A stretch of DNA of 56,476 nucleotides, filler included, from Perkinsus olseni (taxonomy: Eukaryota): the NCBI GenBank assembly GCA_013115125.1. It is 2 parts of 2 records of this genome, joined end to end, with 100 filler letters (N's around TTAATTAATTAA, not from the genome) between each part and the next. Parts side by side here need not be neighbours in the genome. Positions count along the whole stretch, not along the records: positions 1 to 28,206 come from JABANN010000453.1; 1 more part is not named here. One strand, given 5' to 3'. Shown one piece after another: positions 10,501 to 44,620 of the stretch (position 1 is the first letter of the stretch; the number at the start of each line of letters is the position of its first letter). A program made the translations under genes and the position numbers. Below the pieces are notes generated by a model. The model was not told the DNA's origin and did not search any database. It saw only the letters and a list, made by a program, of their open reading frames with translations.

Positions 10501-13500
10501 ATGCGGCAGGCTCAGGTTGGTTCGCCTCAGCCTCCCTCTTCTCTCCGACGGCCGAGCTGGACGGAGAACTCGGGCTAGCCGGAGATGCTTCAGCAGCCCC
10601 TTCAGAAGCCGTAGGCGAGGCTGCTGCTTTTTTCGTGCCTTTCTTGCCCTTAGCTCGAGTCTTCCCTCGACGTGCTTCATTCTTCCCCCTAACGGTGCCC
10701 TTCTTCCCGACTCGTTTGGCCTTGCCCACGACGGGGACGTCCTCACTCTTCTTCTCTTCAACAAGCTTCTCCTTCTTTGTCATATCCGCCAACCCTTCGC
10801 CGGCCTTCCCCTTCTCATCATCAGCAACAGCCTTGCCCCATCCAACCGTCCTCTCATCCTTCCCGTCTTGTTGTGCCTGCTGATTCCTTCCCGCTTCTAC
10901 CAACCTATCAACTACCAATCCTCTCTTCTCCTCAGAGCTACTGTTCTTCCGCTCTTCCTTCATCAACAGCCTTGCTACAACTTTCTCTCGCACTTCATCC
11001 ACAGTATCAGCACTCTCTTTCCCTACCCGTCCTTCATTATCACTATCCGTCTTCCCCTTCGTCTTACTCCCTCCCTTCTTCTCTCTATCCTTCCCTTTAT
11101 GTTTATGCTTCTCCCCCGTCCTCTTTCCCTTCTTGCCTTTCTTCCTCCTTCCTTCACTTCCCTTGACGGTACCGGACTCACTAGAACTGGGTGAGACCTT
11201 CGCACTAGGCGACGGCTCATCGACAGCTTTACTCTCCTGTAGGGCATCTTGCCCATCTTGCACTCTTGCTCGTTTCCTCAACGCCTCCCCATCGTCATTG
11301 GCTGGCGAAGCAGCATCAGCTTCGTCGGTAACTTGCTCATCTTGCTCTCTTGGACGTTTCCTCAACGTCCCTTCCTCAGCGTTAGTCCACCAGCCCTTCG
11401 TTACCTCAAATTTAGGAGGCTCGGGATCGAACCTGGGCAACTTCCACTCCCCCGGCTTCGAAGCCGTGCCCTCATCCAACTCAGCTGCATAACTGGCCTC
11501 GATCTGCTCTCGCATTAAGTCGTAGCTTTCTCTATATATTTTCCTCAGCTGAGATCCCGCGATATAGACATCGTCACCTGGCTTGTTGAAAGCAAAGCAG
11601 TTGTCGAACATGAGCTCGAGGTCCTCTACGAAGTCCTTCGGGCTCGGATACCGATCCAGATTATGCGCGATAGAATCCAAATCGACCGGCCGTTGTATTG
11701 TTTGGTAGTAAGCTTTGCGGTTTTCAATAGGAATGTCCGTGTACTTGTGTACCGGCTTCAAAAATGACCAACCCTGGGGAATGTCCTGCAGCTGCTTGAC
11801 CACTGCGCCTAGCAATTGCCGCCAATGCTTCCGGATGATGGGACGGTTGCCGCTCGCTGTTCGCTCCTTCCGTGACGGATCGGACGCCCTAGGTGATGCA
11901 CCGTTACTGGCACGCCTCCCGTGTTCGGGTGGCGGAGGCGGTCGTGATATACGCGGGAAGAACTCTAGGGTCTCCTTCTGGAAGTCCTTCGGAGGGGAGG
12001 ATACTCTCCACAACTGCGGTGGAGCGCCGTGATGACGTCTTCTCGCCGGCACCACTTCGCCCTGAAATCACACGCCTTCATCTCTACCCATGGCTATTAG
12101 AAGCCACGACGAGCCGGATGTTGCCACAAAGAGCATCATCGTCTTCACCATCAGCTCGATTTGCGCATATGCCTCAGCGCACACAATCGCATCATCCCGC
12201 ATTAATAGTGTCTGTGTCGAATCTGTTCAAATCGATAGAGACTTCGTTAGCGAAGTCAGGAGCTAGTAAAGAAATATTCCTGGAGTACGAGCGTTGAAAC
12301 AAGTCCGCTCCATCAACGACAACGTAGTCGTGTCCACGCCGCGAAAAATAGCCCCTCTGAAATCGACAGATTGATCAACGATTCTACCCCTTATGGATAG
12401 CACGGAACCAGAAGGAGCTCAAAGGAATCTTAGCTCGAAGAGACGATAGGGCATCTTCTCCGACCTCAAGCGGGTAGATAGGAAGACGATAATGCCGCCA
12501 TTAGCACCCAGAGGACGTATCTTACAGTTTCAAGATCAAGCACGGGCGACTCGTGTCTCCACTCCTCCCACAAATCGAGCAGCGGCTCATATCCGAGAGC
12601 CAACGCGGCGTTATAGGACTCCATAACACTGAGGAGGAAAATGACATTTTCTAGCGGAGCGATGCACAAAAGACCTACTCCTTCTCGCTGTACGCCCACT
12701 GCTTGAGATAATGCCGCTCTATCGCTCGGGCCATCTCCGTTATCGGCTTCTCGCCATTAAACTCTTCGCAGTTGGAGAATATCAACATCATGTCGTTGTG
12801 GAAGTCTATCGGACGCGGAAAGAGCTCGAGATTCTCCTGATGGAAACACGAAAATTCAACGGTACACGGTGAAGGTTCGGCATCCCACAGTCCTTTCACC
12901 CAGATCACAATGGTGAGAGGACACGTTAAGGAGGACGACAATTCCAAAGCACTCAGAGTAGACGAATCAAAAACAACCTCATGATGCCAGTGACATGGCA
13001 GATAACGAGTCGTTAATTCTCTTCAACACTGTTGAGAACGCATCACACCCGCTCAATGGACATGAGCGAATCGAACGAATGTCGGGTGTCCACACGATAG
13101 TAGCACGTTTCATACTGTAGACAGGAGTCGATGCACTCTCGCTGTATCTTTCAACTATAATTGTTGACTCACCTCAACAGTTCGTAAATCCATCGGCCGT
13201 TTGATCGTCTTTTGGTACTTCACTTTCTCCTCCATCGAGACCGCTGGATGCTCCACCACCGGCGACTCCAACACGTAAGCATCGCTATGGTTCCTGGGAC
13301 ACGAAGGAACAGGGCGCTTACAGATGGACAGGAACCATACCCTGCGACATATCTAATGTTCATGCTGGGATATCTCATAATACTCAGTTATTCTATCGCC
13401 ACGCGGAACTTCGATCAATCAATCTTATTACATATATTTATTACAGATATTTTGTGATACGCCAGCGTCAACTTTAGATACGCAGACGGGTAACGCTGCT

Positions 13501-15013
13501 ATAGCATTCCATCGGTCCTCACCCCTTCCAAAAATTTTGCCAATTTTGTACTACCAACACTTCATTCGATCGCCTTCCTTACTTAACCGCACGATAGATG
13601 ACCCTAATCGTCCGATGCCAGTTCGCCGTCAGCCGCGTGACTTCAGTGATATCAGCAGGTTTCGCAGCCACTGGTGTAGTGTCGCTAGGGAAGAGTGTCG
13701 GAAAAGCACTGCTTGAAGAGGAGGAGGAAGAGGCAGCCCCGCTCGTCACCGGTCCTGAACATAGCCGTACCCCGTCGAAGTGGTGTAGTGAGCTCAGCAG
13801 TGGTAAAAACACGTGACCGCAATATTCGTGATAATGGAATAATACATGAATAATAAAACATACCAAATTTTCCGACGTTCTCCTACACTTTTCATTCGCC
13901 TTCCCACCCTTGCGCAAATACTTATAGCTCAAGCAGGAATTATGAATACGTTTGAAGTTGTCTCAAAGTTCGCTCGCCCTACACAATCGTCTGAAACGGG
14001 CAATTTACCCCCGCTTTCAGGGCACGCCTCGGGACTCTGAGATCGTGAATTGACGGGAGATTCTGTACAGCTCGTTAGTCTTGAACAACCCATGAAAATT
14101 CTCGGCCATCCGTCATAGCATTCCTCATTGGCATACTGATCACACCTCAGACGAGCATGCGTAAGGGCGATCAACCCCGATAATCCAAAATCGAGCACCC
14201 CCCGTCTTTTACTACCGCCCTCGGAAGCTTTCCGTCCCCCCTTGTTCCCCCCAGCAGCAGTCTTCTTCGCACTGCGAGTAGCCTGTGTCCGGCCACCTGT
14301 TGAGGATACCGGAACTCCTCTCCAACACCTAGCACTCAGCCCTACCGCGTTTGGAGGAGCGACGAGACTGGGGCGAGGACACAGTCGAGGACGGTGCACG
14401 CCTCCGCGTCCCACTCCGAGCAGTCCTCTCACTCGGTGCCTTCTCAGAATCTATCCGACAAGTGGGTCCCTCCCGTTTAACACGCCATATGACAGTGAAT
14501 CACTTGTGACTCGTATTGTGGTCTAGCATGACAGATATGTAGGATTCCCTGTGTACTCGAAAAAACTGTTACTGCCTAGCCAACCTTCCACCGACGCATT
14601 CCCTGAAGCTGTCGAGTCGCACCTCTATTGATCCGCTCCTTCGCCGTCCTCCATGCCGCTTCGAATAACTTCTTCAACCTCTTCCCTTCCGTATGGGCAT
14701 ACTCTCCGGGCGTGTTGAATAGGAAACAGTTGGAAAACATGAGATTCATATCCTCCTCGAAGCGGCGAGACGAATAGAGCGGGTCATTCTCCAGCCTCTC
14801 TCCCACCGTCCGCAAGTCCATCGGGCGGCTGATTGCCTGAGCCGTGAAAACCTTCGCTGTGCGGAATATCTTCCTTTCCCTATCTACCAATCGATACCGT
14901 CGTTTCACTTCATCAGGCAGCTCACACTCCACCACTGGTTTTACAAAGAAGTATCCTCGATCGGCCTTCTCGACTCTTGCTCGGACCTTCTTGCATTCAT
15001 CTCGCCATGTCAT
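7556..15013 (-). CDS. Multi-bromodomain protein locus (four bromodomains; one gene or two adjacent genes)
   Basis: BD1 at about 14630-15013 (FVKPV..ISRPMDLRTV..MFSNCFLFN). BD2 at about 12690-13640, split by long introns (LESPV..IKRPMDLRTVE/..IFSNCEEFN). BD3 at about 11500-11830 (FLKPV..IQRPVDL..MFDNCFAFN). BD4 at about 8380-8870, in frames the ORF track misses (DYYSIIKEPMDLGVV..IFHNCLLYN). Lys/Ser-rich linkers and a poly-His tract lie between them. Confidence 0.82.
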
Positions 15014-15669
15014 GAGATGGACAACGAAAGGGGGGTGGAAGGCACTGAACTGACAGCCCCACCACTGACAAGTCAGGGAGGATGGGCAGGGACGGCCCGA
15101 TCGGCGTTCCATACATTCCTTAGCCAACGCGAAGCCTCCTTTATTAAGTGACATGAACACAACAAGGCGGCAAGTACCCCTCCACTCCTTAAAACATGCT
15201 ATCACATGCCATGTTCAAAATATCACCATCACCACCACAACGATCAGTCCCCGACTAGTCGCCGCCGAGGACTGTGACAAACGGCAGGAAATTTTTTGAG
15301 GATTCTATAGAGTATAGCAGCAGTAACAGCGACAGCCGCAATAGTAACAGGTAAACGCCCAAGGGGGACTCAATCAATCACCGAAAGGCAGCAGCTTCCT
15401 CAATTGTACAACATTGCGTAAGCGTCAAAAACAACCTCGAGACGAAGGCAGAGGCAGTGAGAGGCACTCCGTCGAAGAATGGGCGGCGGTGGCAGAGAGG
15501 ATGCAGTCCACTTTGTCGTACTTATAAATATACACTCTTACAGCGGTGAGCAATGGTTCATCAAATTCTGCTTTTCTTTTTTCCTTTTACATTGTTTTTT
15601 TTGTTTTTTTCTGAAATTCTCATCAAACATGTACTGGTAATGTAACACAGGCCATGGGACTGCGGCCTA

Positions 15670-22838: not shown

Positions 22839-23124
22839 GCGCTACTACTACTACTAGCCACATCATAACGTACCAGTATCTTACCATCACCCGTGATCAT
22901 TGCGTTGGAAGTTAGTAGTGGAGGGAGAGTGAGGATAGAAGAACAAAGTTGGGTGTTATATATCGTGACCATCCGTATCGGTATTCAACCTAGTTCGAAA
23001 GTAGTTAACCATCCAGAGTTGGGCCCATGGTAAGAGAGGTGCCGCATCAGCCAGAAACAGATAGAATCACTCACAATGTCACTCGAAAGAGGAGCGGACG
23101 CGTAGAATTCAATGCTCAGTTTCA

Positions 23125-24105
23125 ATGACTGATAATCCACTTGATAGCAAGGAGTATGTACTGGACGCTCTCGATGGGTTCGCGTTCGAAGATGGGCCGC
23201 CGGGCCGTGAAGGTAAGGTCGCTTTAGGTGGTCGTGCAACCTCATAGTCCCCATTTCAGATGTTCCACCGACGAGGACTCCTACGAGGAAATTTATTAAG
23301 AGAGCAAAAGAAAAATCGGCAAGTCCCGGAAAGAGGCCCCGATCGGCTACCAAAGGGAGGACACCGAAGAGAGAGGCCCTGCAGCGGCATCGAGGTGGGC
23401 TGGGGATCTGTGAGGGCGTCACCAGTCCTTTGCACTCACCCTTCGTTCAGGATTCCCACCAAGCGTAGGCGAGTGTCCCCGAGTGTTGATACTGGGCTCA
23501 GCACCCTGTGAGATGTCCCTCGAGAAGGGGCAGTTCTACGGCAACCCTCGGAACCACTTCTGGGCGGTTATGGCCTACGCAATGGAGGACCCTCAATTTC
23601 CCATGCTCGACTTCGAGACGCGCTGCTCAGTCCTCCGGTCAAGGGAGATTGCCCTGTGGAACATCTGTGACGTCTTCACCCGCTATAAGAGCTCCGACGC
23701 CACTCTGCACTGTGAAGGTAGCGCCCCTCCCCCTTCGTGACCACACACAGTCGTGGTCCTCCTGTGCGTCAGAGTACACCGACATCGCTGGGCTAGTGGT
23801 GCAGCATCCCTCCATTCGCTACATTCTATGCAACGGCACCGCCTCCTTTGAGTGCATGCAAAAGTACGACCTGCCAGGCCGGCTGCAGGTAGTGGTCGAT
23901 ATGTTGATATCTCATGAGGGATTGGTCGGAACCCGCCGAATCATTGCCGGATGCCCCTCAGGGCTGCGGTGTTGATGTTCCGGTGATATCTAAGTTGCCG
24001 TCAACCAGCCCAGCTAACGCCATGGCCGACCCTGTTGAGACCAAGGGGAAGGTGTGGAAGGAAAAGCTACAGGAGGCATTAGGAAGCCCTCATGGGCGAG
24101 AATGA
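23125..24105 (+). CDS. UDG-superfamily DNA glycosylase, family-6 (hypoxanthine-DNA glycosylase)-like, copy 1
   Basis: GFPP..PRVLILGSAPCEMSLEKGQFYGNPRNHFW, IALWNIC..SSDATL, ILCNG, KLPSTSPANA..W. Five exons. Confidence 0.85.
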
Positions 24106-24396
24106 GGTTGATACCCTGAGCTCGATTATAGTGTATTACAGCGTTCTGTGTTTCATTTATTAACCATTGCCTTCTACGTCTCAACCGTACACTGTCACAA
24201 TACTGTGCCTTCTGTGTTACAGTAGACAGTCTTCGGGAGGGATGAGGGATGGTGCAGCATGGCTAGGGTGTTTGCGGATGAGAGAGGGGCCACCGGGCAT
24301 TTCTGATCCCGGATGGCCCGTGCTCCCCTCAGCAGTGCCGCGAGCGACTGATGATAGTGTATTAGCTACGTTCGTTAGCCGGCGTAATTTTTAACC

Positions 24397-25722
24397 ATGA
24401 TTAGTGCACCAGGCTCGGGCGGGATCGACCTGACCAAGGAGACGGCACTCCTAGCGAGCCTACAGGCCTACGCTTTTAATCAAGAGCATGACGTGGTTGC
24501 GGGTGAGTACAATAGCCGCTGTACTGGCCCCGCAGTATCTGCCGCCTGCAGATGCCTCTTCTACACCTACTCGATCTAGAAGAAGCACGATATCGTCAAC
24601 TAGCAGTAGCAGTGGTCGTAGCAGGAGACCGACGTCCGTACGTAACGGCATCAGCAAGGGACTCCTCTTCGAGAGGCGTCGAGGTGAGCACGTCCCTCGG
24701 CTGTCTTGCGGTGTGCCTCGCCGCAGCACTACGCTCTGCAGGCCTTCCACCAATCCTCGGCCCGGACCCTCGCGTCCTCATCCTAGGCTCAGCACCTAGT
24801 CAGATATCTCTGATGAGGGGAGAGTACTACGCCAATCCTCACAATCACTTCTGGGGCGTCCTCGGCTACGCAATGGATGACCCTGAGTTCCCCTTGCTGG
24901 ACTACCAATCTCGTTGTGATGTTTTGAAAGCGAGAGGCATCGCTGTGTGGGACATCTGTGAGGAGTTCACTCGCCATAGAAGTGCTGATGCCACTCTGCA
25001 GTGTGAAGGTGAGATGATAGTCGAATGAATTCACCTCCGACGGCCACGCTTGTGCACTCTCTGGTCGAAGGGAATGTGGTGATGGAACAGAACATGATAG
25101 AGCAGGTAGAGTGACGAGTAGTCGAGAGAATTGGAGTTAATGACCGGGCAACCCTAGTATGATGAAACTAAGGAACCCACGCTTCCCACAGTGCATCCGC
25201 GACTGCACTCGAGTTTGAGATGAATGCCGCCGCGCCCACGGGTTTGATAGTCCGGAAAACCTGAACTCTCGCTGATTGGTCTTTTTATCAGAATACAGTG
25301 ACATTGCGAAGCTGCTGGTGGATAACCCGGCAGTAAAGCGGATACTGTGCAACGGTTCGGCCTCCTTCAATAATGTCCGAAAATACAAACTTGAAGAAAA
25401 GATGAAAGTAGGGACACACGGCGCAGGGCACTCACATCGATTCTGAGGCGGTCACCTTTATGTAGAACTATGAGTTCACCGGGTTGACAGGTGACGGTAA
25501 CAAGGTAGCGGTTCCTTGTCTTTTTACATTCGTTCGTTGTTCTGCCAGTAGCGGCGCCACTGAGGGGTTTCTATTCAGGCACTCGCCCCTTCGGGAGCTG
25601 TGGAGGTGCCAGAGATAGTGAGGCTACCGTCCACGAGCCCTGCGCATGCTGTGGCGAACGCTGTGGAAACCAAGGGGGAAGCCTGGAAGCAACAGCTGCG
25701 GGAGCTCATTCGCGCCGACTGA
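24397..25722 (+). CDS. UDG-superfamily DNA glycosylase, family-6-like, copy 2
   Basis: GLPPILGPDPRVLILGSAPSQISLMRGEYYANPHNHFW, IAVWDIC..SADATL, ILCNG, RLPSTSPAHA..W. Intron positions match copy 1. Confidence 0.85.
25156..25267 (+). ncRNA. Candidate intronic box C/D snoRNA
   Basis: ATGATGA (25159-25165) and CTGA (25261-25264), flanked by an AGT/ACT 3-bp stem, inside an unusually long intron. No rRNA target recognised. Confidence 0.2.
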
Positions 25723-25897
25723 ATTGCCAGGACGTACTCGAGGACGTGTATCATGTGTCTTATCATCACTTTATTTCATTTCAATTCATTTAAAGTTTCT
25801 CGCCCGCATGTGTTTGTTCGTAACAGTTGGATAACGCCCAGTCTCGATAACGCGAGGGCAAGCACATATGTGAAGCAACCACATCACACAAGCAAGT

Positions 25898-28105
25898 TTA
25901 CAAATCTGCCTTGTCATAAATCAACGTCACTGCTCTCCCGTGTGGGGAGCTTTCTCCAGTCATCACCAGACCACCTGAGAGAGGAGATCCACCGAACACC
26001 TTCACTCGCCCCTCAGCGCGATCGTCACTCACCCGACCATCCGCCGGCATCGCCTTGGACAACACCTCAGGCACATCACGAGACAACAGCACCATTGCCA
26101 GAGCAGCCCGGCCCGACGACGAGACCGCGGAGGTGATGATTTCATGATGCCCTGGGAGGAGTCGATGCTCTCTGGGGCGGAGGCTGTGGACGCTGGACTA
26201 GACGGCATGTCTAATTGAACCTACAGAAGGTAACCGAGGCGGGTCCGAGACGCTACATCGAAGAAGACGGTTACCTTATCGAAGGAGGGGTCCTCTTCGG
26301 CGCTGAGCTCGTCCCAAGTCGGTATGCTCACGCTTGACCCTTCTCCCTCAACTGTCGCTGGCCGTGCATGCGTGTTGGCAGTACCACTCCCCCACATCTT
26401 CACGACACTCAATGCCTCCATTCTGACCAGCGATCTGACTCTAGCATCTTCGTGTTCGAAATGATCGCCGATCTCTCTACAGAGCTTCAATATAGTGTCA
26501 AGCCAGGGCAAGTAAGAATCAGTGTTCGCCAAGTGAAGGAGTACAGCACATACACCAACAACGCCTCGCCAACTGTCCTGAGCGTTCAGGAAAGGTTCAG
26601 TGAGCAGTTTCGCGGCGTAGCTCTGCAGCCTAGGATCGACTATCCGCTGGAGGCTCTCGGCAGTCCGGACGGTGACGCTACCGGGAATCGGAGTTGTAGT
26701 GGGATTGGTGATGGCGGAGATTTCGGTGGCTATTCCAAGCTCCTCAGGAGAGAGAAATAGTCGATCCACGAAGCTAGTCATGGTGAAAACTGATAGTCAA
26801 ACGGTGAAACACTGGAGAGACTAGTGAACCAATCACAGCACCACAAGATGCCTCGAGAACGCCGGCTGGCCCTACTCAGGGGCGTAGACCGAGTATTCCG
26901 CGGCGCTGAGAGACGGTGGTGGGTTTGGGCAGAGGCGACCGAGTTGAACCGACTCGGTTGGCGCTCCTTCCAATAGAGCAGTCCGAATAAGAGGAGCCGC
27001 GACCTAGAGCTTCCATTTCGCCGACAACGCAATGAGGGGAAAGCATAGAAATGCTCGAGTGGCTGGTGACACGAGACTCTGCATGTTAGAGCTGAATGCA
27101 TCAGGCAGTCTGTGTGGAGGGAAAAGGCACTTCCTGGCATGCATGTACAAACTGTCAGCCGCTAGCTTCATCTCAGTGAAGGGTCGCATGATCGCATCGT
27201 CCGCTCGCTTGTCAAGGCCTTCCAGTGTCTTGTCCGATCTCAGTTCTGTCCAAAGCTGAATACGAAGGAGCGACTCGGAGCACCGCCGATCTTCCTCATC
27301 CGACCTCCTCAACATGGTCCCGCAGGTGGCGTATGCTCTGTAGCTCAGTCGGTCGAACGTGTCCATGGACATCATCAAACCTTGCTGGATGAGCGCTGAC
27401 AGCCTCGAGATCGAGCCGTGGAAGAAGGCCAGCATCGAAGGGAATTATGTGGAAGTCGTGGCTTAGTCTGAACACGCACTTGGCGATTCTCCAAACACTG
27501 AAGAAAATGAGATCAACCCACACCGTCTCGATCTCCTCCGCCCTCTCCATGGCTTGCCTCAAGCGTAGCATATCAAGATTGAGGTGCCAAGGGACACACC
27601 TGGACGAGGTGACGCCCCTGCGAGACGAAGCAAAACATTGCTCACTTTCCCGGCTCCGGGACTTGATGGAGCGGTTCGACATGAGCCCCACTAGCCCTTG
27701 TCGCCTCTGCGGTTGCCTTGGTCATTCGCTGCATCTCCTTGATCATCGCGGCAGCATTAGTGGCATGCACCGTGTGGGGGTCGGGATCTGAAGGGAGAGG
27801 CTCTCTATATTCGTACCGCACCAAAGCTCGCAATAATTCGAACATGTGACTTCCCCGCTGACCCAACGGGAAGAAGGAGGATCGCCCTCACTCTGAGCCT
27901 GCCACGGTCCATCCTGACCGTACAATTTATCGCCATCCTTAGCGTAGAAGGGCCAGGGACCACCAAAGCCGATCTGGACCGTCGGCATACTAGCAGGACC
28001 CTCTGATGAGACGACCGGCGTGTACGGCTTCAAGTGCACTTGACCTCGGGAGTCTATCCCCGTCGCGTTGTGAACAGCCTTCAGTACATGATTGAGCAAA
28101 GCCAT
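25898..28105 (-). CDS. Hypothetical multi-exon, largely alpha-helical protein
   Basis: A chain of same-strand ORFs (27743-28105, 27642-27866, 27296-27691, 27004-27435, 26221-26781) can be linked by short GT-AG introns. No family recognised. Confidence 0.55.
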
Positions 28106-28206
28106 GCTTGCGAAGCTACTTATACAGTGCTCTAAATAATCTTAGAATATTTCCAAAAAGAGCGATATCTCGGTAACAATCACGAATCAGAAGCTGGTAC
28201 TTGGAT

Positions 28207-28306
28207 NNNNNNNNNNNNNNNNNNNNNNNNNNNNNNNNNNNNNNNNNNNNTTAATTAATTAANNNNNNNNNNNNNNNNNNNNNNNNNNNNNNNNNNNNNN
28301 NNNNNN
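28207..28306. other. Artificial contig linker (44 N + TTAATTAATTAA + 44 N)
   Basis: Exactly 100 nt and symmetric. The central palindromic 12-mer places TAA stops in all six frames. Confidence 0.97.
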
Positions 28307-28307
28307 G

Positions 28308-28378
<71 letters not shown>

Positions 28379-28393
28379 ATTATTATTATTATT
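28307..28393. repeat. (GTT)n then (ATT)n microsatellite at the contig start
   Basis: Read directly. It lies in an intron of the truncated METTL16 gene and probably caused the assembly break. Confidence 0.95.
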
Positions 28394-28400
28394 GTGATAG

Positions 28401-28791
28401 GATGTTGAAGGAGTCTGAAGCTCATCCTCATTTATGTGTTTGGTTTACGAGTGTTTGTGCTAGAAGGGCAACTCTGAAGAAACTAGAGAAGCTAATGAAG
28501 AGGAGTATTAACGGTGGATTCTCCCATGATGCCTACGAATGCTGTTGTTGTTGTGTAGATCCATCCATACTAGAAGTGAAGACAATTACTCTTTATCAAG
28601 GGAGGCAGACAAGATGGGTTATATGTTGGACGTTCCTTAATGAGATGCAGCGGGCAGTCCGACTTACACCAAACTTACAACAACCATGTAAAACAACAGC
28701 TACTACCGAGGAAGGGACCGACGGGGAAGAAGTACAACAACAACAATTGGAATCTTCATTATCATCATCATCACCATTCTATACGTTTTAA
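28401..28791 (+). CDS. METTL16: METTL16/RlmF-family RNA m6A methyltransferase, 3' exons only
   Basis: VWFTSVCARRATL and LYQGRQTRWVICWTF match the family's WFTSM.GK and QG.T.RW..AWSF motifs. The 5' part is cut by the gap. Confidence 0.78.
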
Positions 28792-29439
28792 CCTTGTATG
28801 TGTGGTATGACACTGTTTATCGTGTTGTTACTTTGTATTGGACAAACTACATGAGATATTCCCAAAGCTGCATCGGGTTCGAGTGAGAGGGAGGACAATA
28901 CGGCACATAGCTTCCACAGCGGTCCCAAGTTGCCATGTCACTCACAACTCAACGGTTCAAGGATAGATCCGAAACTTCTGTTAGTGGTCGACACCTCACG
29001 ATAAACGTGACCCCTTCAAGTGACAAACAGAAATTGAGAAGCAAGTGAAGTAAGAAATATCTCGAAAATCGCGATCGAAGCAGGCGGCGGGTCAATGAGG
29101 GTAAAAGCCGAAGCCTTTAAAGGGGCCGGAGGCACATACTCGCGAGATACTCGTATCAGTACACAATACTGAAGGACATCGTACAGAGAGCCGTCATGAG
29201 TACCATGAGGATGAAATGGTGGTTATCGTCGATTGATGCCCATGAAGCATCGACAATGGCGATGGCGAAAACTTGTTGTTCGATGAGCTGTCACGTAGCT
29301 GCCTGTGAAAGGTGAAGACAGAATCGGCTCAGCAGCATAACGATGCACCAATGTGACACATCGCGTCACCAATACACATGCCTGTACAGCACGACTATTA
29401 CTTATTCTTCAACAATAACGATACAAATTTGGTGGTCTA

Positions 29440-31305
29440 TTATCGAGTAGGAGCACATCCCCGATTGTCAAAAGGTGGCATAAATGTATTGTCCAATAGA
29501 TAGGTCATAGCGTTAGTAGTGATGATGAATAAGGTCACCTGAATCATAAAGAGAACAATACTATTATTGTGCACTTGGTAATAATAACAGCCGAGGTGCA
29601 ATGATTATTATGATTATTACAGTGGTATCGATAAGGATAACTACCGGTTCCTTCTCCCTCTCATTATACGTACTGTGTACCTTGTACATTATAAGAAGGT
29701 AGGTTAAACCCGCCAATAGACCCGTTATGAATATGAGAATGTATCTAATAGAGTATACTGATGCCTTGGGTTATGCCGATTATTATCATTATTACTGTAG
29801 GTAGAGTGGAAGGAAATGGGCACGACTGTTTACCATCCATATTGTCCATTGACATAATGACATTACCACTGTGTATGGGTAGGCATTGAGAAGTATACCA
29901 TATCTAAAACGTGATAATAATGGTAAACTAGTAGTACCCAGCAGATGACCAAATGAATACACCAACCCAATGACCTGCCATAACACCATCACATAAGATG
30001 ACAATGACGCTGTTACTACTACCTCAAAACTGTGACATATACTCCAAGTACTCCCACCATTATTCATCATATCATTCGCCTCCTGTAGTGTTAGGTTGTT
30101 TGAATCTCTTACTAATTTACCAACTATCATTATTTGCATGAAGTACCTACTATGACAATACACAATAATAATGCTGCAATAGATAACATGACTCACGTTG
30201 AGCCCAGCAGGAGACATAATGGCCAAACTTTACGTTGAAGGAAAGTACTCAGGTACCTCTTAATGATACTCAAGATGCCTTCGGGGGACTCTCCTTCATA
30301 AAAATGGTACGCATTAGAAGAATCTCCCTCTGTTGTTTTTATGGTTGGTAGAGGTTTGAGTAGATTCCATAAAATGATGTATAATGTAGCAGGTAATAGG
30401 AGTACATAATATATATGTTGTGATGTTATACCAATGGTAGAATGGAGAATGATATACCTATAAGGATGACAATGTTGTTACGGTAAGCAGCCGCAGCAGC
30501 ATTAGCAGTCGAAGGGAAGTACGTACTTACAGGAAGTAAGCATAGATAGCAGATATACCAGATCCAGAGGTAATAGCTCCCGTTAGTGTTGGATTGAATC
30601 TACGCATGTACGTCAATAATACCTGATCATCTGATTATCATACTAATGCTGATAATGATGAACAACAACAACAACAACAACAATAAGAAGAAGAAGAAGA
30701 AGAAGAAGGAAGGAATCGACTCTGTATTACCACAGCCCCGAAACTACCAGATGAACCAGTAAATAGCAGACCAATGAGAAGTAGCCAGAATGTTGGTGCC
30801 GATCCGACTAACACCAACCCAAGTATCATGAATATAGAATTAGCCCACCTGTCATAATGATACTTGCGCTACGGTTGTAGTGGTATTACAATCTATATTC
30901 AAATTTGACATTATGTGCTTCCAAGAATATAGAGCCTATGTTGAAGAATAATGTTAGTCCAATATTAGCCCAACCGATCAATCCAAACATATGCTCGGCG
31001 TTAAATGCTTCTGATAGATCTTTAGACGATGCTGCCGATATACCCCACATTGAGAATGTGAATATGGAACATAACAGAAAGATACAATAATTCCGCCAAT
31101 AGTACGTACGACACCTGATCATCACCATCATCATCATCATCATCACAACAATAGCATGACTGGTGATTGCACTGTAGTGAGAGTAGGACTACTGAGAGCG
31201 CTGTTCCTGTTCTTCTTCTTCTTCTTCTTCTTGTTGTTGTTTGTCTAGAGAGATCTCATCACTAGTAGTTGTGGTAGTATCATCACTGGGGAACGAAGGT
31301 ACCAT
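29440..31305 (-). CDS. CLN3/battenin (Btn1)-like MFS-fold membrane transporter
   Basis: Many transmembrane exons: ISAASSKDL, LLTYMRRFNPTLTGAITSGSGISA (compare WSSGTG.AG), FITGLLAGLTY (compare EGLLGG.AY). Confidence 0.62.
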
Positions 31306-31478
31306 GTTCGATTGATATGACAATAAAGATGATGATAAAAATCTGATCGTGTGAACCCGCTGTTATATGTTAACTGTTACTACTAGTAGTCGTTGGATGT
31401 AATAGAAACGTTGATGTTAGTTACAACAATAGCAATGGAACTAATGATGGTGTTCAGTGTTGTGATCATTAGTCATCA

Positions 31479-32277
31479 TCATACAGGTGGTGTTGGTGGT
31501 AGTAGACGTTGTCGTGTTATTGGCTGCTCTCCTGGACATAATCTTAGACCGTAACTGAAGAGTGAGTAGTGATAACGAGAACGATGATGCAAGTAACTAT
31601 TAGCTTGGACGCTAGCCGTGATGGTAGTATTACTCGTATCTTGGATCATCTCCTGCTAACGTTGACGTCCAGTCTGGTATTAGTTGCTTTATTAATGAAT
31701 AACATTTAAGAACAAGGTAAGTTTGTAAGAATAGACCACATAATAGTAGTAGTACATTATCCAGTACCCAATAAGTATACCTAGATCCCCTCAATTGGGA
31801 CCAATTATACGATGCTGCAGTAGAATTGTGATAGAATGATAATACATCAAATATGATACTCAAGGGTCCCCATATACATGCTAGCATCAACCAACTACCA
31901 CTCGACTGGCAACCCCCTCTACGGAACAGCATTATTATAACTGCCGTAAGGATATCATTCCAGCCTAGGAATGCTATATCATCAATGATGTTACTATTAA
32001 TCATACAGAGGGAGTATCTTATTACACCGGATATTAGTAATACTGATGTACCCTGTACAAATAGTAAGGCTTCCCTAGTTGATGTCATTGTTTCTGATAT
32101 ACGACGTGGCGGTATATTTATACGTGGTAGAGGTAGAGTACAGCAATAGGTGATAAATGTAGTAAATATCTTGCTAACTCTGCTGCTGCTACTGCCACTA
32201 CTAGTGTTTGTAGATGTTACTTCTCTTGATGGGAAGGTAGACGACGGCATCGATTGACGGATAAACTTGACTATCAT
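31479..32277 (-). CDS. Hypothetical multi-pass membrane protein
   Basis: The 225-aa ORF has about four hydrophobic segments and a short terminal exon after a GT-AG intron. Confidence 0.6.
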
Positions 32278-32434
32278 AAAAGGGGATACGATGGTCGCAT
32301 GGAACACAAGACGCAGCAGTGATAGTTACATCAAGGCATGACAATGACATATTATGAATACATTACTTCGTACCATGATCATCATTATTACGAGTATACT
32401 GATGATGGCAGTAGTAGTAGGAGTATGAATGGTA

Positions 32435-33741
32435 TTAATGGTAGGAGATAATCCTAGGGTTCCTATTTATCTGTAATGTATTGTTATCGTATAATCCCTC
32501 TTGTTGTGATGCATGACCATTGACCATCATAATATTATGTGGCATTCTTGACGGCTGCTGCTGCTGCTGCTGTTGTTGTTGGTGTATAACATACCCATTA
32601 TCCCCCGCATCCTGGCACCCTACAATCTGCGGCCCAACTGTACTGCCCATCCATACTCCTGCTGCTGCTGCTGCCGGTGCTGTGGGTGATGTATTAGTGT
32701 ATGGTACACCCAATACCACTCCTTCACCTAAAATACTGTATCTGATAACAACAACGACACTAATACTGCTGCTGCTGCTGTAGGCATGTGTAGTAGTACA
32801 ATTTATAACCATAATAGAAGGAAGCTCCGTTGAATATGATGGTTATTATAGGTATTATGATGAGGATGGGCAGAGATGATGCACCAGTAATACTATCAAT
32901 ATCATCACCTACAACACATCATCATCATCATTATACCACAACATCAACAACTGTACTACATGTTATTGACATATTCTCATCTGAGACGGCATACTCTTCT
33001 TCATCTGCGGTATAGGGATCAATCTAATGATCATAGTAATAACAATAATCATTATTATTATTACTAGTGGTGGTGGTACGACTAGTAGCATGAGTTTCTC
33101 TATTACCTTTATATAGGTATCACCTGCATCACACTCATCATGCCAATCATTAAAAACCGTAGATAATACTATCAATCCGCTAAGGCCTATAATTGCGAAT
33201 ATCTGAAGAGGCTGATGAGAGAGGTAAACCACCATACTACTGTTACTGTTACTTACCACACTGCATAGGTTGCATCCACAGAAACAACACATAAGGTTAC
33301 GATTACTGAGTAGGAATAGAAGAAGGAGTGGTATGAGTAGTATGTCTATTGCTACTACTCATATTACCTCTGTTTAGCACCTAACCATCCACATGCTGGT
33401 ACCAATAAACCGAGTGCTACTGATAAGAGTATATATATAGTAGTAGTAGCAGCATCACCACTGGTGGTACGGATACCACTTCTCAGCTGAATCACAAGGT
33501 AACGATAGTATATAGTGATAATACTGACACCATATTACTGAGTTGCTTATAGCGAATAATGCACCAACAGTTGATAAAACAAGGACCTTCCGTACCAATG
33601 CAGCATGTCCTGGTAATAATCAATAATCATACCATCTCTCTCCCATTTCGTCAAGTACATACCTCTATTCTGCATTTCTATTCCGTATACTGCCACCACA
33701 CCCTCCTGTTGTTGTTGGTGGGGTGGGGATGAGGGTATCAT
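32435..33741 (-). CDS. Four-TM membrane protein with CG..GAK / NLMCCFCGCNLC motif, copy B
   Basis: Exons: VAVYGI, LVRKVLVLSTVGA, ALGLLVPACGWLGAKQ, NRNLMCCFCGCNLC, FNDWHDEC, RYSILGEGVV. Confidence 0.65.
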
Positions 33742-33898
33742 ACAAAACAATATTCAATACATGTAGTATGCTGTTAATGCGCAACATTAACAGTAATAGT
33801 CGTGTGAACATCATCTCTACATCATCATGTGGAGTTGCATCACCATCATCATCACCATTCAGATAGTATTACCAACACTTACCGGTGGTATAACCTAA

Positions 33899-34211
33899 TC
33901 ATAGCATCAACCAGCACCATTGATCATACCCTACTACTACCACCATTACATGATGTCTATCTGTAATTGGCAATGTTGGTGGTGGTGGGTGGCAAGGTAG
34001 TGCTATAACAACACCCTTACTGAGCTTATCGTATCTACATAGTAATAACGAGGTTGAGCATTCATGCCATTAGTATTACAACTGGTAACCGTAATGAAAA
34101 CTCATACCATCAAACAAGAGCACTAATAGACCTAGTACTATCCCAATTGCCAAGACTGATGATGCATTGAATGAGGAGAGATCTGCACCTATACACAGGA
34201 TACAGTAGCAG

Positions 34212-34267
<56 letters not shown>

Positions 34268-34402
34268 TTATCGTAATTACATGATATCACAGCATCCGTA
34301 TCAGATGCAGCATGGGGTATACGGTTGATGCTGCCCTCTGTAGTAACAACCTATAACGATAATGCAAGTAGAAGTGTTAGGAAATTGAGTACCAATACAA
34401 CA

Positions 34403-34434
<32 letters not shown>

Positions 34435-35021
34435 CACACGATATCTAACTTGTCCTGCTCTGCATTCATCATTCCAATTATTAAATATCATAATGATGGT
34501 TATTAATGTGGCTAACCCAATGATCGATAGTATCTGATACCATCTCATACTGAACACTGCTTATTATTAATCATATCATTATTACCATTGCACATAAGTT
34601 GCAGCCACAAAAGCAGCACATTAGGTTACGATCACTGAAAACGGGAGTCAGTGATGGTAGTAGTATTGCCTGAGTAGTGATACTTCCATTACTTGTTTTT
34701 AGCACCGTACCATCCACATAGTGGTATTAACAGTCCTAATGCAAGAGATATGATAAATTGTGAAAGTGATGGTATGAGACCAGCATCGCTACGAGCCAAC
34801 ACTACAACCTAACAATGACGATGATAGCCTCCTACTCCACGGCAGTAGTAGCAGTAGTTATTACAGCATTGAGGAGTATGATGAATGCACCAATGATAGA
34901 TAATGTTACCACTTTCCTTACCAATCTACCCAACCCTACAACACGAAGGTTCATACATCAATGAAATAGTAGTAGTACTATCACCTTCATCATAGATATT
35001 CAATCCATATACAACAAGCAT
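33899..35021 (-). CDS. Four-TM membrane protein with CCFCGCN motif, copy A
   Basis: Exons: LVVYGL, LVRKVVTLSIIGA, ALGLLIPLCGWYGAKN, DRNLMCCFCGCNLC, FNNWNDEC, RYDKLSKGVV. Collinear with copy B. Confidence 0.65.
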
Positions 35022-35229
35022 GATGGTAGTAGGAGAGATGAAGTAATGATGGAAGAATAACAACAACGGGTGTGTCGACTGTGGATCGACACAGGAATCT
35101 ACTACTACTACGCGCCGTCTCCCGGTAGTAATAACAACAACAAAACAACAATGATTCATCATGCGTACTGACAGCATATGATGAGTAGTAGCATTACTCT
35201 TTTGAGTAGTGCTTAGACGACGACGACGA

Positions 35230-35273
35230 CATGGTAATACCCCTTCATGATGATTAGCTAACTACTCCCTTAC

Positions 35274-35310
<37 letters not shown>

Positions 35311-37370
35311 CCTTGGCTCAAGTTGAAATCAAATGCATAATCATACCTGAGTCTATCCACCTCAAGAGTAGTGGAGATGATGGTATGATAATTATCATAT
35401 TATTACCCTATAGCCTCCTCGTCCTCCTCTATCTCATCCTCACTACCATCCCTTCCCGATGTTGTGGTGTTACTAATAACAACATACACATAATACTACT
35501 ACTACTCTAAGACTCCCTTTAACATTACCTTGTGTTGTCGGACACAACAGTAGTGCTATTAGAAGTAGATGTTATCGGTGTAGGGGGCGTGACGGGGGGC
35601 GGGGTCTTATCTATCACCACCGATTGCTGCTGCTGCTGCTGCTGCTGCTGGCGGTGGTGATGGTGGTCAGTGACGGTCCTCCTCCGACTACCACGTAGTA
35701 GCCTAGATCTCCTCTCTTCTATGATACCATCGATAAGCCCCCTCATATCATCACGTATATCATTCAAGGTACTGCGATGATCATGATCATGATGACGATG
35801 ATGATACTCATCATCATAGTCATCACCACAATCGAATGATGATGATGATGATGATGATGCTTGTTGTTGTTGTTGGGGGCAGGGAGGAGGGCATGGGTCC
35901 TTGTTGATATATGCTGATGTATATTCCACATCATCATCACCACCATCACAAGGCCTCCCACTACTACTACTAAGACTATAATCACCACCACCAACCTCGT
36001 CTTCCTCGTCAATATCATCATCATAGATTATTATATTATTAAACTTTGGTTCGGATGGGTGCCTACCATAAATTACGATAATCACATCGTTGAGTTTGAT
36101 GAGTATTACGTTATAGCCACAGCAGGTAGTTGTGCAGTAGTTCCCGTCCCTGATGGACGGGCCATAAGTGAGGGGGTTGGGGCAGAGGTTGGGGCAGCGG
36201 CACCCCCTGAGGGTACGGGAGGGGTGAGGAGCACTGTAGGGGATACTGTAGGGTATGTTGTTGGTGAGGTTGGTTGGGTATTGGGCAGAGGGGCAGCATC
36301 AGCGGAGGGTGAATGGGGGCGCACAGCAGTAGAAGGCATGGCAGGAGGTGCAGGGTTGTTGTTGTTGTTGTCTCCTGGCGGGGGATATGGTGTAATCCCT
36401 GCCTGTGGTGGTGGTTGTTGTTGTACATACCTGGGCAGAATGATGGTATATTGGAATGATGATGATAATGGAGGCTACTACCAAGGTGGTGGCATTGGCA
36501 TTATGATGATGTTATGATTCTCAGTCTGCTGCTGCTGCTTGAGAGGTGGGGATGGTGTTGTAGTTGTACTTGTAGTAGCGGCAGTGGGTACAGGGGGCGC
36601 ACGAGTATTGTAACAAGAAGGGAAGAAGAGTTCTGAGACAACGATGTAGAGTACCACTATCGATGAGAGTACGATAAGGTTACCAAGTATTGTATTATAA
36701 GCCCTATCGAAGGTTATACCATCCCACCTCGAGTAGGTACCTACAAGTATCTTCATGTTCTAGTGTTAGGTAGGCAACAACAATGTTTGTAGTGCTCATG
36801 CTCATGCTGCTGCCCGAGACCTTATTACAATCATCATAATCGAGTATACTGTTCGTAAAGACAACCCCCTCCTCCTGCTGCTGCTGCTGCTGCTGCTGCT
36901 GTTGGGTGTAGCATGGAGTGTGGTAGGGTAATGGACCCCAGATTGACCATGGCATCCTGCCACTACTACTACTCCGTACATGGCCAGCTGTAGCATCACC
37001 ATCATAGTAGTAGTAATCATCATTGTTATACCACATATCATCACTGAGAAGGGAGTGAGTTATAATAATAGCCCTCTACCATCACACGCCCACTACTACC
37101 CCTCATTACCTCATTGTCATGCTCGTCAAGGATGGATCTGCTACCTGCTGTACTGCTGTTAGATCACATGCTGCACAGTGAGGTATAGGGTAGTAATGGT
37201 GGTGATAATACGGTATGAGGTAGTGTCTGATGAGGGTGATGCGTGAGTAGTAGTAGTAGTGATGGTAGTACTGTAGGAGTAATTGTCCAGCATTATCTGG
37301 ATCACATGTTACCCTTCTTATACATGTATCATCATATGCAGTGTGCAGGGATGCTGCCTCCCTACCACTG

Positions 37371-37424
<54 letters not shown>

Positions 37425-37486
37425 CGACCTTCTACTACTAGTAATAGTAGTAGAGGTACTAGTAGTGTAGGTAGATAGACTTTCAT
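35230..37486 (-). CDS. Hypothetical type-I membrane/secreted protein, low complexity
   Basis: Signal peptide [20 protein letters not shown], poly-Ser, Cys-containing exons, a TM segment (LIVLSSIVVLYIVVS) and a Pro/Thr-rich tail. The 3' end is approximate. Confidence 0.5.
37370..37422. repeat. (CTA/TAG)n microsatellite encoding poly-Ser
   Basis: Read directly. Confidence 0.9.
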
Positions 37487-37715
37487 TCTACTGATGGGAG
37501 TAGTGGTGACGATAGTGTTGTTGTTGTTGTTGTTATTGATGTGGTAGTGGAGGCCGCCGGGGCAGCATGGTAAAGATACGATTATAAGAAACGGTACTGT
37601 AGTAGTAGTAAGAATCCAGCACTACTAGTGAGGATAACAACACAACAACAACAAGTGTAGACGTTGATGTTGGCTCCTACTACCACCACCAGCAGCAGCA
37701 GTGGTAGATACGACC

Positions 37716-38344
37716 TATTGTGATGTAGTAGTGGCCGAGAGTTGCCTTAATATTTGTGCCACTAATACACCATTAGTGTCAGGGTGGGTAGACTGGATGA
37801 ATTTGTAGTAATACTTACTTGAGTTGAAGTATCTGATAATAATACCATACCATACACTACTCCTACTACTACTACTACCATATCATTATTACTTATTATC
37901 AACACCCTGCTTCAGGAACTTACTCCTTATCTCAGCCTCATCCATAACCCCCTCACAGGACCATTGTAGTCCGGGTACTTTCCTGATATGCATCATACCA
38001 GTAAGCAGGTGTGATACGAAGGGGGGAAGACCTACTTAGCGTTCTGCAGGTCCTCTGCTGACAGCTCTGATGTCGATACTTTGCCTAAAGACAACAACAA
38101 CGCTGGTAGTCGTGGTCGGCGTGGTTGGGGAGGAAAATACTCCATCATGATGATCATGATTACCTTCATGTAATAACCTATTAAGCTTAGCCTTCCTCTT
38201 CTTTCCTATTACTACCACTCCTCCTTCAGTTGTTGTCTTGGATACCCTGCCACTAGGCTTATCCACTACGGACCTCACCCTACTGGGGTATCTTCTCAGT
38301 GGTGCTATACCAAACATTGATGATTTGCATCTATGCTTCGCCAT
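37716..38344 (-). CDS. Small basic hypothetical protein
   Basis: ORF MAKHRCKSSMFGIAPLRRYP.. plus plausible downstream exons (MHIRKVPGLQWSCEG..). Confidence 0.35.
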
Positions 38345-38487
38345 CTAATAGCAAGGGACAACAACAACTAAGGGGGTACGGCTCTACCGACAATAACAAC
38401 AACAACAACACTACAGGGATGAATGATGAAACGGATAGAAATGATGATGATGATCAATAGGGATGGGCCTCGTTGTTGTTGTTATGA

Positions 38488-41185: not shown

Positions 41186-41328
41186 GGCGATAGTAGAAGA
41201 AGATCAGCGCAGTCGTGTTGGTAGTAAAAATATTTACTCTTGCACACTCGAGCAATCTTGCATTTCCTCAACACTCTCGCATGAGACCTACCAAGGTGAT
41301 GTTGTCCAGTCTCGTCCAATGTTGAATA

Positions 41329-43633: not shown

Positions 43634-43661
43634 TAATAATACTCACAACGACCGTCGTATT

Positions 43662-43692
<31 letters not shown>

Positions 43693-43704
43693 CCAACCAC
43701 AGGT

Positions 43705-44420: not shown

Positions 44421-44462
<42 letters not shown>

Positions 44463-44620
44463 ACAGCAGCAGAGGTGATGTCGTCCATCCTGTAGAATTG
44501 CTCCTTATTACTACCGTTCAGGTTGGTGAGTGTCCAGTATGTGGCAAGGGTGGTATACCTATGTCGGATCTTCAACGTCATGTTAATCAGTGTCTTGAAG
44601 GCAGCAGCTGATAACTACTG
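43705..44620 (+). CDS. Hypothetical protein
   Basis: Exon-like ORFs (DFSGYQMMVPAGMKDELVYDG; LWNNAKYWSKFGEMLDLG) separated by GT-AG introns. Ends approximate. Confidence 0.4.

Follow-up and report, generated by a model that had tools for sequence, protein, structure and literature searches.

A 56,476-nucleotide stretch of Perkinsus olseni DNA (assembly GCA_013115125.1, filler included; hereafter the window) contains, on the + strand at positions 23125-25722, two head-to-tail genes, g1 and then g2, which were located by sequence reading and gene models and which encode proteins of uracil-DNA glycosylase (UDG) family 6, the family of the hypoxanthine-DNA glycosylases (HDGs). The interpretation preferred in this study, to which a probability of roughly 0.6 is assigned, is that g1 and g2 are a nuclear gene pair for monofunctional, HDG-type family-6 glycosylases of a eukaryote-type branch, that the pair was formed by tandem duplication before P. 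olseni and P. chesapeaki split, and that g2 acts on hypoxanthine while g1 is altered.

According to this interpretation, a four-intron gene would have been duplicated in tandem before the two Perkinsus species diverged. The g2 protein, which keeps all invariant residues of the family, is predicted from its sequence to flip out and excise hypoxanthine (deaminated adenine), which would start base excision repair. The g1 copy would have evolved faster after the duplication, with the Asp of a Trp-Asp pair replaced by Asn, and is more likely to have an altered base preference or rate than to be redundant. A short N-terminal motif and a basic stretch may serve in docking to a partner protein and in nuclear import.

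Gene structure and duplication history

The two gene models are as follows.

23125-24105, + strand: g1, family-6 UDG paralog of 249 amino acids (gene model, spliced contigs, GenBank identity)
23125-23212, 23260-23394, 23451-23717, 23773-23888 and 23962-24105, + strand: g1 exons (gene model)
23213-23259 (47 nucleotides, phase 1), 23395-23450 (56 nucleotides), 23718-23772 (55 nucleotides) and 23889-23961 (73 nucleotides), + strand: g1 introns (GT..AG and RNA joints)
24397-25722, + strand: g2, family-6 UDG paralog of 254 amino acids (gene model, spliced contigs, match to P0002)
24397-24502, 24552-24683, 24742-25008, 25292-25407 and 25579-25722, + strand: g2 exons (gene model)
24503-24551 (49 nucleotides, phase 1), 24684-24741 (58 nucleotides), 25009-25291 (283 nucleotides) and 25408-25578 (171 nucleotides), + strand: g2 introns (GT..AG and RNA joints)

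Each gene has five exons and four introns, all eight introns are of the GT..AG type, and the intron phases are 1,1,1,0 in both copies. The coding sequences, each with one terminal stop, are 750 nucleotides (249 amino acids) in g1 and 765 nucleotides (254 amino acids) in g2, and the two proteins are identical at 118 of 240 aligned residues (49%). Introns 2, 3 and 4 occupy matching alignment columns in g1/g2 (a split Gly codon at 75/80, a split Glu codon at 164/169, and a position after codon 202/207). In both genes, intron 1 interrupts an Asp codon within a low-complexity stretch that aligns poorly.

P0233 (GenBank KAF4655570.1 of P. olseni) has the sequence of the g1 model at all 249 residues, and P0121, also of P. 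olseni, shares a 90% cluster with g1 and is identical to it at 234 of 249 residues. The g2 model and the P. olseni protein P0002 agree at 243 of 254 residues. Both genes lie on a single 41.2-kb contig, with adjacent locus tags, in one P. olseni assembly. GenBank labels these proteins hypothetical, and in UniRef they are named "Uracil-DNA glycosylase-like domain-containing protein," except for two fragments that carry the name "DNA-deoxyinosine glycosylase." Upstream of g1, a six-codon open reading frame (ORF) in another frame begins with an ATG at 23112 and, at 23112-23132, overlaps the g1 start codon at 23125 inside the transcribed contig. In another P. olseni haplotype (P0316), the annotated start lies further upstream than the g1 ATG.

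The introns predate the duplication, since they are shared by both copies. The P. chesapeaki record P0001 (435 amino acids) is a fused model in which a g1-like half (WN/PANA) is followed by a g2-like half (WD/PAHA). Because P0001 holds both halves, the tandem pair arose before P. olseni and P. chesapeaki diverged. The g1 orthologs are close, with a path length of 0.24. The initial annotation had described two diverged, intact, intron-bearing tandem paralogs and had proposed that an intron-bearing gene was duplicated. The gene models, the shared phases and the RNA joints agree with the description, and the shared introns and the tandem halves of P0001 agree with the proposal. A separate g2-like sequence was seen in P0122 (Logan record, 150 amino acids), which is 75% identical over 113 columns and continues without a break across the intron 3 site. 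It resembles the product of prokaryote-style gene calling on genomic DNA from a further Perkinsus-like organism with intron 3 in the same place.

Expression and splicing

The stretch, or part of it, is contained in 20 of 24 listed public runs; of those 20, ten contain at least half of its sampled words and two are recorded as RNA. Four of the 24 runs were compared with the window. Run X4 is recorded RNA and run X2 is RNA by guess only. In the contigs of X4 and X2 all eight introns are skipped exactly, with zero letters differing from the window, and each run has a separate contig for each gene (23107-24198 for g1 and 24377-25795 for g2). Both genes are transcribed separately and cis-spliced; contigs of this kind cannot reveal transcript ends or expression level. 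The raw-read RNA runs X21 and X23 had 0 reads on the stretch, a result that does not count as a test of expression.

One X4 contig also contained the following candidate feature.

24377-24378, + strand: probable spliced-leader acceptor AG of g2, 19 nucleotides upstream of the ATG (one X4 contig)

Nine loose letters precede position 24377 in this contig, and when the genomic AG is added the string is identical to the final 11 nucleotides of PmaSL1, the Perkinsus spliced leader whose sequence is printed in PMC3101222. On the basis of these nine letters, the g2 mRNA is probably trans-spliced to the Perkinsus spliced leader. No loose spliced-leader end was reported for the g1 contig, which starts at 23107.

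Assignment to UDG family 6

The assignment of g1 and g2 was based on curated profile models, on solved structures and on family motifs. First, the NCBIfam model TIGR04274 (UDG family 6, DNA-deoxyinosine glycosylase, an equivalog with a curated cut-off of 80 bits) gave full-length scores of 119.4 bits for P0002 (g2 type) and 107.6 bits for P0121 (g1 type), both of which are above the cut-off. The third exon alone scored 78 bits for g1 and 90 bits for g2, which excludes a chance match. The same two proteins scored 32.7 and 27 bits on TIGR00584 (MUG/TDG), which has a cut-off of 402.6, and at most 22 bits on NF007570 (UDG family 2), which has a cut-off of 144. Pfam recognizes only the superfamily domain PF03167 in these genes. 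The UNG motifs GQDPY and HPSPLS are absent from both translated genes, and no UNG chain was found among the PDB sequence matches up to E = 1.

Secondly, the closest solved relative is 2l3f, a putative UDG of Methanosarcina acetivorans, with E values of 5e-16 by sequence and 7e-39 by profile. It is followed by Deinococcus radiodurans MUG and then by human TDG, both in the sequence search and in Foldseek. An AlphaFold2 model, made for P0002 (g2 type) only and from an alignment of 36 sequences, had a mean predicted local distance difference test score of 82, with values of 90-98 across the domain at residues 80-230. Foldseek with this model returned 2l3f first (E 2e-12, template modeling score 0.84 on the target).

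Third, the family motifs were compared with 381 non-Perkinsus homologs. Motif 1 is GSAPC in g1 and GSAPS in g2, of the G-[ST]-x-P-[GS] type without the catalytic Asp/Asn of families 1 and 2, and its columns are conserved as G in 381/381, S in 337/381 and P in 381/381 homologs. In the block Tyr-Tyr-x-x-Pro-x-Asn-x-Phe-Trp, the Asn (381/381 in the family), the Phe and the Trp are kept in both copies. The first Tyr of the pair, present in 379 of the 381 homologs (99%), is Phe in g1. Motif 2, Leu-Pro-Ser-[ST]-Ser-Pro-Ala, is present in both copies at the following positions.

23995-24021 (g1, LPSTSPANA) and 25624-25650 (g2, LPSTSPAHA), + strand: motif 2, in which L, P, S, S, P and A are each conserved in at least 94%

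Thus g1 and g2 belong to UDG family 6 by score and fold, with a UDG alpha/beta core of about 170 residues. All motifs listed in the initial annotation are present in the g1 and g2 translations. Its assignment of the genes to family 6, distinct from UNG and TDG/MUG, stands: when the proteins were scored on the UDG subfamily models, as had been suggested there, they passed family 6 and failed family 2, and the MUG/TDG model was missed by a wide margin.

A eukaryote-type branch of family 6

Word-based searches with Perkinsus queries returned Perkinsus as the sole named eukaryote, and the next matches were bacterial, archaeal and metagenomic proteins at about 40-50% identity. The family is widespread in prokaryotes, where at least 576 species were matched, and the Protein Atlas neighbors fall in clusters that are 100% Bacteria. 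In a metagenome scan (at least 599 stretches), the 80 loci retained were all relatives at 33-46% identity, and none of the 80 came from the contigs of P0332 or P0320.

An exhaustive profile search, in which alignment A3 was run against 1.84 billion representatives, gave 5218 matches at E values up to 1e-3. Right after the Perkinsus entries, and above the bacterial ones, it ranked long proteins in which the match extended into an N-terminal extension. Twenty of these long relatives were looked up. Four had names of eukaryotes, namely Plasmodiophora brassicae (P0324), Nonionella stella (P0423, EukProt), Anaeramoeba flamelloides (P0346) and P. olseni itself (P0316), one was bacterial (P0318, Fibrobacter), and 15 were without an organism name. 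A C-terminal signature after motif 2 is present in 21 of the 147 top representatives, and the bacterial ones are without it. All 24 members of alignment A4 match TIGR04274.

Three trees, all unrooted, were compared. In a quick tree of 128 rows, the seven Perkinsus rows formed one clade on a long stem with a Shimodaira-Hasegawa-like approximate likelihood ratio test (SH-aLRT) value of 99, and their sister was the metagenomic protein P0124. A search with P0124 (80 matches among 8000 scored candidates) brought up neither a close relative nor any other named eukaryote. The next tree had 147 rows, since new proteins were added and 21 near-duplicate prokaryotic rows were dropped, and contained a 32-row clade (SH-aLRT 97) in which the seven Perkinsus rows were joined by Plasmodiophora, Nonionella and 23 unnamed rows, 19 of them with the signature and 4 without it. 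The careful tree was built on 183 columns and 87 rows, after removal of two nearly identical rows of P. olseni and of more prokaryotic rows. Its supports, given as bootstrap/SH-aLRT, were as follows.

Perkinsus rows: 95/98
g1 pair, stem 0.58: 100/100
g2 pair, stem 0.04: 99/45
Perkinsus and P0354: 96/83
15-row clade of Perkinsus, Plasmodiophora, Nonionella and unnamed rows: 97/95
full 30-row eukaryote-type set as one clade: 49/89

Because Perkinsus groups with Plasmodiophora, Nonionella and many unnamed proteins, any acquisition of the gene came earlier and reached further than Perkinsus. The trees pointed to no bacterial donor group. The sister of the eukaryote-type clade was mixed and weakly supported (Methanoregula, a Christensenellaceae bin, a Planctomycetota bin and unnamed proteins). 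The two domains of the Anaeramoeba protein were placed outside the clade, with a sequence of Alistipes (Bacteroidota), at 85/86. Since these domains group elsewhere, with Alistipes, family 6 probably entered eukaryotes more than once, and P0346 suggests a separate transfer into Anaeramoeba. P0346 (494 amino acids) consists of two nearly identical domains joined by a Lys/Glu-rich linker. A two-domain family-6 protein is also found outside the Perkinsus clade in P0318 (Fibrobacter cluster, 346 amino acids).

These results modify the evolutionary history that had been proposed for the pair, namely a lateral acquisition followed by intron gain and duplication. The close named relatives outside the eukaryote-type clade were every one bacterial or archaeal, which fits a transfer. 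Any such event would not have been confined to Perkinsus, which is separate from TDG/MUG as had been expected but is joined with Plasmodiophora and Nonionella at 97/95. Nor is a family of prokaryotic type new to eukaryotes, as had been implied: in addition to this clade, a 2014 review describes family 6 enzymes as "found in all domains" (PMC3950489).

Putative active-site residues that distinguish g1 from g2

Two motifs at likely active-site positions were compared between the copies.

23657-23662 (g1, Trp144-Asn145) and 24948-24953 (g2, Trp149-Asp150), + strand: Trp-Asp pair, by alignment column
23690-23698 (g1, Ser155-x-Asp157) and 24981-24989 (g2, Ser160-x-Asp162), + strand: Ser-x-Asp, Asp column kept in both

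The Trp-Asp feature of the family is present in g2 and not in g1, in which Asn replaces Asp. This column is Asp in all 381 non-Perkinsus homologs, a set gathered by words shared with Asp-bearing queries. It is also Asp at all 80 genome loci and all 80 metagenome loci examined, which are prokaryote-dominated sets picked by a pattern elsewhere in the protein, and in 143 of the 147 top representatives of the profile search, which is likewise free of Asp bias. The four Asn cases among the 147 are P0316 (the Perkinsus g1 model), P0317, P0354 and P0388, all of eukaryote type. The Asn of g1 is retained in the g1 orthologs of both P. olseni and P. chesapeaki. Asp may have changed to Asn separately in the lineage leading to Perkinsus g1, whose sister P0354 also has Asn, and in the P0317/P0388 lineage. 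P0317 (JGI record, 543 amino acids) has two tandem family-6 domains, with Asn in the first, Val in the second and Asp in neither, and its single-domain relative P0388 has Asn too. In the profile alignment to TDG, the Trp-Asp column carries a positively scoring TDG residue, which we take to be the base-contacting Asn191.

The Asp of Ser-x-Asp is Asp in 378 of 380 homologs and is kept in both copies. It aligns with the sole position that differs between D. radiodurans MUG (2c2p) and its inactive mutant (2c2q), and Asp93 is named as the catalytic residue of that enzyme in PMC5128194. From this alignment, Asp157 of g1 and Asp162 of g2 are the probable catalytic Asp.

The initial annotation had pointed to two differences, WN versus WD and PANA versus PAHA, as signs of split specificities. 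The first is a strong difference in sequence, as the counts of Asp above indicate. The second is a weak sign of split specificity because the column that holds H or N in motif 2 varies naturally within the family (H in 205, N in 109 and Y in 42 of 379 homologs, with a similar pattern in three other sets).

N-terminal extension

In the Perkinsus proteins the catalytic core is preceded by about 75 residues of disordered, basic N-terminal extension, and many eukaryote-type members carry such extensions, which contain basic stretches and range from tens to hundreds of residues. A motif scan identified a short element near the start of both proteins.

23170-23187 (g1, LDGFAF) and 24460-24477 (g2, LQAYAF), + strand: N-terminal short motif (motif scan)

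Of the 19 eukaryote-type proteins with an extension of at least 25 amino acids, 10 contain the motif [LIMF][DESQ]x[FY]x[FY], where shuffling predicts 0.09, a count that overstates significance in that the motif was defined after these sequences were seen. Two more members have an [LIM]xxFF form. In the P0002 model the motif lies in a helix of moderate confidence.

Nuclear UNG2 of animals, compared here for architecture only, has a disordered N-terminus with a short aromatic docking motif and then a basic, import-like stretch, with the UDG-fold domain behind them. By analogy, the Perkinsus motif is read as a putative docking site with an import signal behind it. A PCNA box was also considered for the N-terminal motif but is unlikely, as L-[DQ]-x-[FY]-A-F departs from the PCNA-box consensus.

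Comparison with characterized glycosylases

The prototype of the family is the HDG of Methanosarcina barkeri (Lee, Dominy and Cao, 2011), and that founding study reportedly also places family 6 in all domains of life. The Perkinsus proteins share with the family-6 HDGs (TIGR04274; 2l3f) the Gly-Ser-Ala-Pro-Ser/Cys form of motif 1, the Tyr-Tyr...Asn-x-Phe-Trp block, Ser-x-Asp, an Asn-Gly pair and motif 2, in addition to the TIGR04274 scores of the P. olseni proteins for both copies and the top structural match to 2l3f. They differ in several respects. First, the Perkinsus genes have four introns and a probable spliced leader. Secondly, the Perkinsus proteins have the N-terminal extension of about 75 residues with its aromatic motif and basic stretches. 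Third, they are one residue longer after motif 2, where they have the signature A-[HN]-A-[MV]-x-[DN]-[AP]-V. Lastly, three conserved columns are changed in both copies, and g1 has Asn for the Asp of the Trp-Asp pair. As for activity, PMC8307549 and PMC5387724 describe family-6 HDGs as excising hypoxanthine from DNA and as lacking uracil-DNA glycosylase activity.

Of the other systems, D. radiodurans MUG (MUG2 class; 2c2p and the inactive mutant 2c2q) is the second-best solved relative by sequence and fold, with a motif 1 of the G-T-A-P-S type and Asp at both the Trp-Asp and the Ser-x-Asp columns. However, it is a uracil glycosylase of another family, it was matched at 28.7 bits with a single sequence and at 44 bits with a profile, and it has no N-terminal extension. 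Human TDG and Escherichia coli MUG (family 2) have the same UDG fold and are weakly similar in sequence (E 7e-5 to 5e-3), and TDG has long non-catalytic tails. Unlike these enzymes, the Perkinsus proteins score 27-33 bits against the 402.6 of TIGR00584, and they lack the Gly-Ile-Asn-Pro-Gly form of motif 1 with its catalytic Asn. Thus the Perkinsus genes are not nested in the vertically inherited TDG/MUG group, a placement that the initial annotation had named as one that would refute it. Nuclear UNG2 differs in belonging to family 1, with the motifs GQDPY and HPSPLS as given in PMC5449639.

The surrounding window

The surroundings of g1 and g2 are an ordinary nuclear region. Sixteen long ORFs elsewhere in it were compared with Pfam, and five were above the gathering score, namely two bromodomain ORFs, a protein kinase, a PfkB kinase and TFIIS. 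An Rfam scan of the window gave no match. The remaining features are as follows.

10115-12067 and 14576-15214, - strand: bromodomain ORFs, about 2.5 kb apart and scoring 47 bits each, which may be a tandem pair or two exons of one multi-bromodomain gene
1-28 kb: G+C 0.52-0.60
28-46 kb: G+C 0.39-0.46, rising to about 0.49 afterward
28000-46000: low-GC part with few long ORFs, no Pfam match above the gathering score and only four trinucleotide runs

Evaluation of the proposed mechanism and its alternatives

Several points weigh against the interpretation that g1 and g2 are HDG-type enzymes of a eukaryote-type branch. First, no characterized eukaryotic family-6 enzyme was found in the papers searched, and the activity of g1 and g2 is predicted. 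Secondly, three further conserved columns are changed in both copies, Gly (93%) to Arg/Lys, Ile (97%) to Leu and Asn (95%) to Ser/Thr. Because both copies depart at these columns, even g2 may not behave like the archaeal enzyme. Third, the base-contact role of the Asp in the Trp-Asp pair comes from the TDG profile alignment and the background on the TDG residue and not from a family-6 DNA complex, and the 381-homolog set is biased to Asp by the way in which it was gathered. Fourth, the 30-row eukaryote-type set has support of only 49/89, most of it is unnamed, and its eukaryotic origin is deduced from N-terminal extensions and three named species. Lastly, the evidence for a spliced leader is nine letters in a single contig.

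Of the alternatives, vertical inheritance of the eukaryote-type branch from an early eukaryote or from an early ancestor of the stramenopile-alveolate-rhizarian group, with loss in most lineages, is a serious candidate, though one that we judge improbable on balance. One clade joins an alveolate and two rhizarians, many eukaryote-type members share N-terminal extensions with basic stretches, and the four introns are shared by the Perkinsus copies, all of which speak in its favor. However, the tree is unrooted, the base of the full set is weak (49/89), the clade contains only three named eukaryotic lineages, and the family is vast in prokaryotes, with at least the 576 species and, at E values up to 1e-3, the 5218 representatives noted above. 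The grouping of the Anaeramoeba copy with a Bacteroidota sequence (85/86) indicates that transfer into eukaryotes does happen in family 6, and spread from one eukaryote to another is not distinguishable from vertical descent by these data.

It is unlikely, in our judgment, that g1 is a weak or dead paralog retained as a lesion-binding or regulatory pseudo-enzyme. In favor of such a role, g1 has lost an Asp that is constant in every prokaryote-type sequence examined, it has Phe where 99% have the first Tyr, and its stem in the careful tree is 0.58, against 0.04 for g2. On the other hand, g1 retains the probable catalytic Asp157, the invariant Asn109, Trp112 and motif 2, and it is expressed and correctly spliced. 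Its Asn has been kept in both Perkinsus species over a path length of 0.24 between orthologs, and Asn at the aligned column is, by the profile alignment, the normal state in TDG.

We give little weight to a recent transfer from a bacterium or archaeon into Perkinsus specifically, followed by intron gain and duplication. The word-based searches, in which Perkinsus was the only named eukaryote and prokaryotic or metagenomic proteins followed at about 40-50% identity, agree with such an event, as do the purely bacterial Protein Atlas clusters. Against it, the long relatives outrank the bacterial ones in the profile search and three of those looked up are named eukaryotes other than Perkinsus. Perkinsus, Plasmodiophora and Nonionella are joined at 97/95, the N-terminal motif is found in 10 of 19 extended members and the C-terminal signature in 21 of 147 representatives, and the sister groups are mixed and weakly supported, so that they indicate no bacterial donor group.

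A role of the pair on modified bases such as 5-hydroxymethyluracil, a dinoflagellate-type modification, had been raised as a speculation in the initial annotation and is also very improbable. The evidence in its favor is indirect: the Asn of g1 stands at the column where TDG, a remover of 5-hydroxymethyluracil (PDB titles 4fnc and 4xeg), aligns a similar residue. No named dinoflagellate homolog was seen in any search, most members of the clade being unnamed, and the named relatives are a plasmodiophorid and a foraminiferan. The papers searched contained none linking Perkinsus with these enzymes, no data on 5-hydroxymethyluracil in Perkinsus DNA were found, and the speculation thus gained no support.

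Bacterial contamination or an assembly artefact, suggested only by the prokaryote-dominated range of the family, can be dismissed in view of eight spliceosomal GT..AG introns that are all removed in RNA contigs, the spliced-leader remnant, the eukaryotic flanking genes, and the recurrence of the same tandem pair both on the 41.2-kb contig of P. olseni and in P. chesapeaki, where it is annotated as one fused model.

The interpretation of g1 and g2 as a duplicated pair of eukaryote-type, HDG-type glycosylases is therefore retained. A broader proposal, which is more tentative, is that these genes belong to an unrecognized eukaryote-type subfamily of family 6 in protists (perkinsids, plasmodiophorids, foraminifera and many unnamed lineages), in which Asp changed to Asn at least twice. 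Many of its members would have a docking motif and an import signal at the N-terminus and a distinctive segment following motif 2. In such a subfamily the Asn forms might be neofunctionalized, with a base contact like that of TDG/UDG, so that g2 would act on hypoxanthine and g1 on another lesion.

Significance

Hypoxanthine in DNA leads to A-to-G mutations, and its removal in eukaryotes is usually credited to alkyladenine glycosylase or endonuclease V. The gain in knowledge from this pair is modest, in that the family was known before, its occurrence in eukaryotes has been published, GenBank and UniProt already list the proteins under automatic names, and no new mechanism is implied. What remains of interest is the eukaryote-type subfamily, the N-terminal motif and the recurrent change from Asp to Asn. 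If the predicted activity of g2 is correct, some protists would express a third route for hypoxanthine that is otherwise typical of bacteria and archaea, with eukaryotic additions. The Perkinsus pair would also be a natural experiment on one active-site residue, which in one copy is an Asn, typical of thymine and uracil enzymes and conserved across species, and in the other the Asp of the family.

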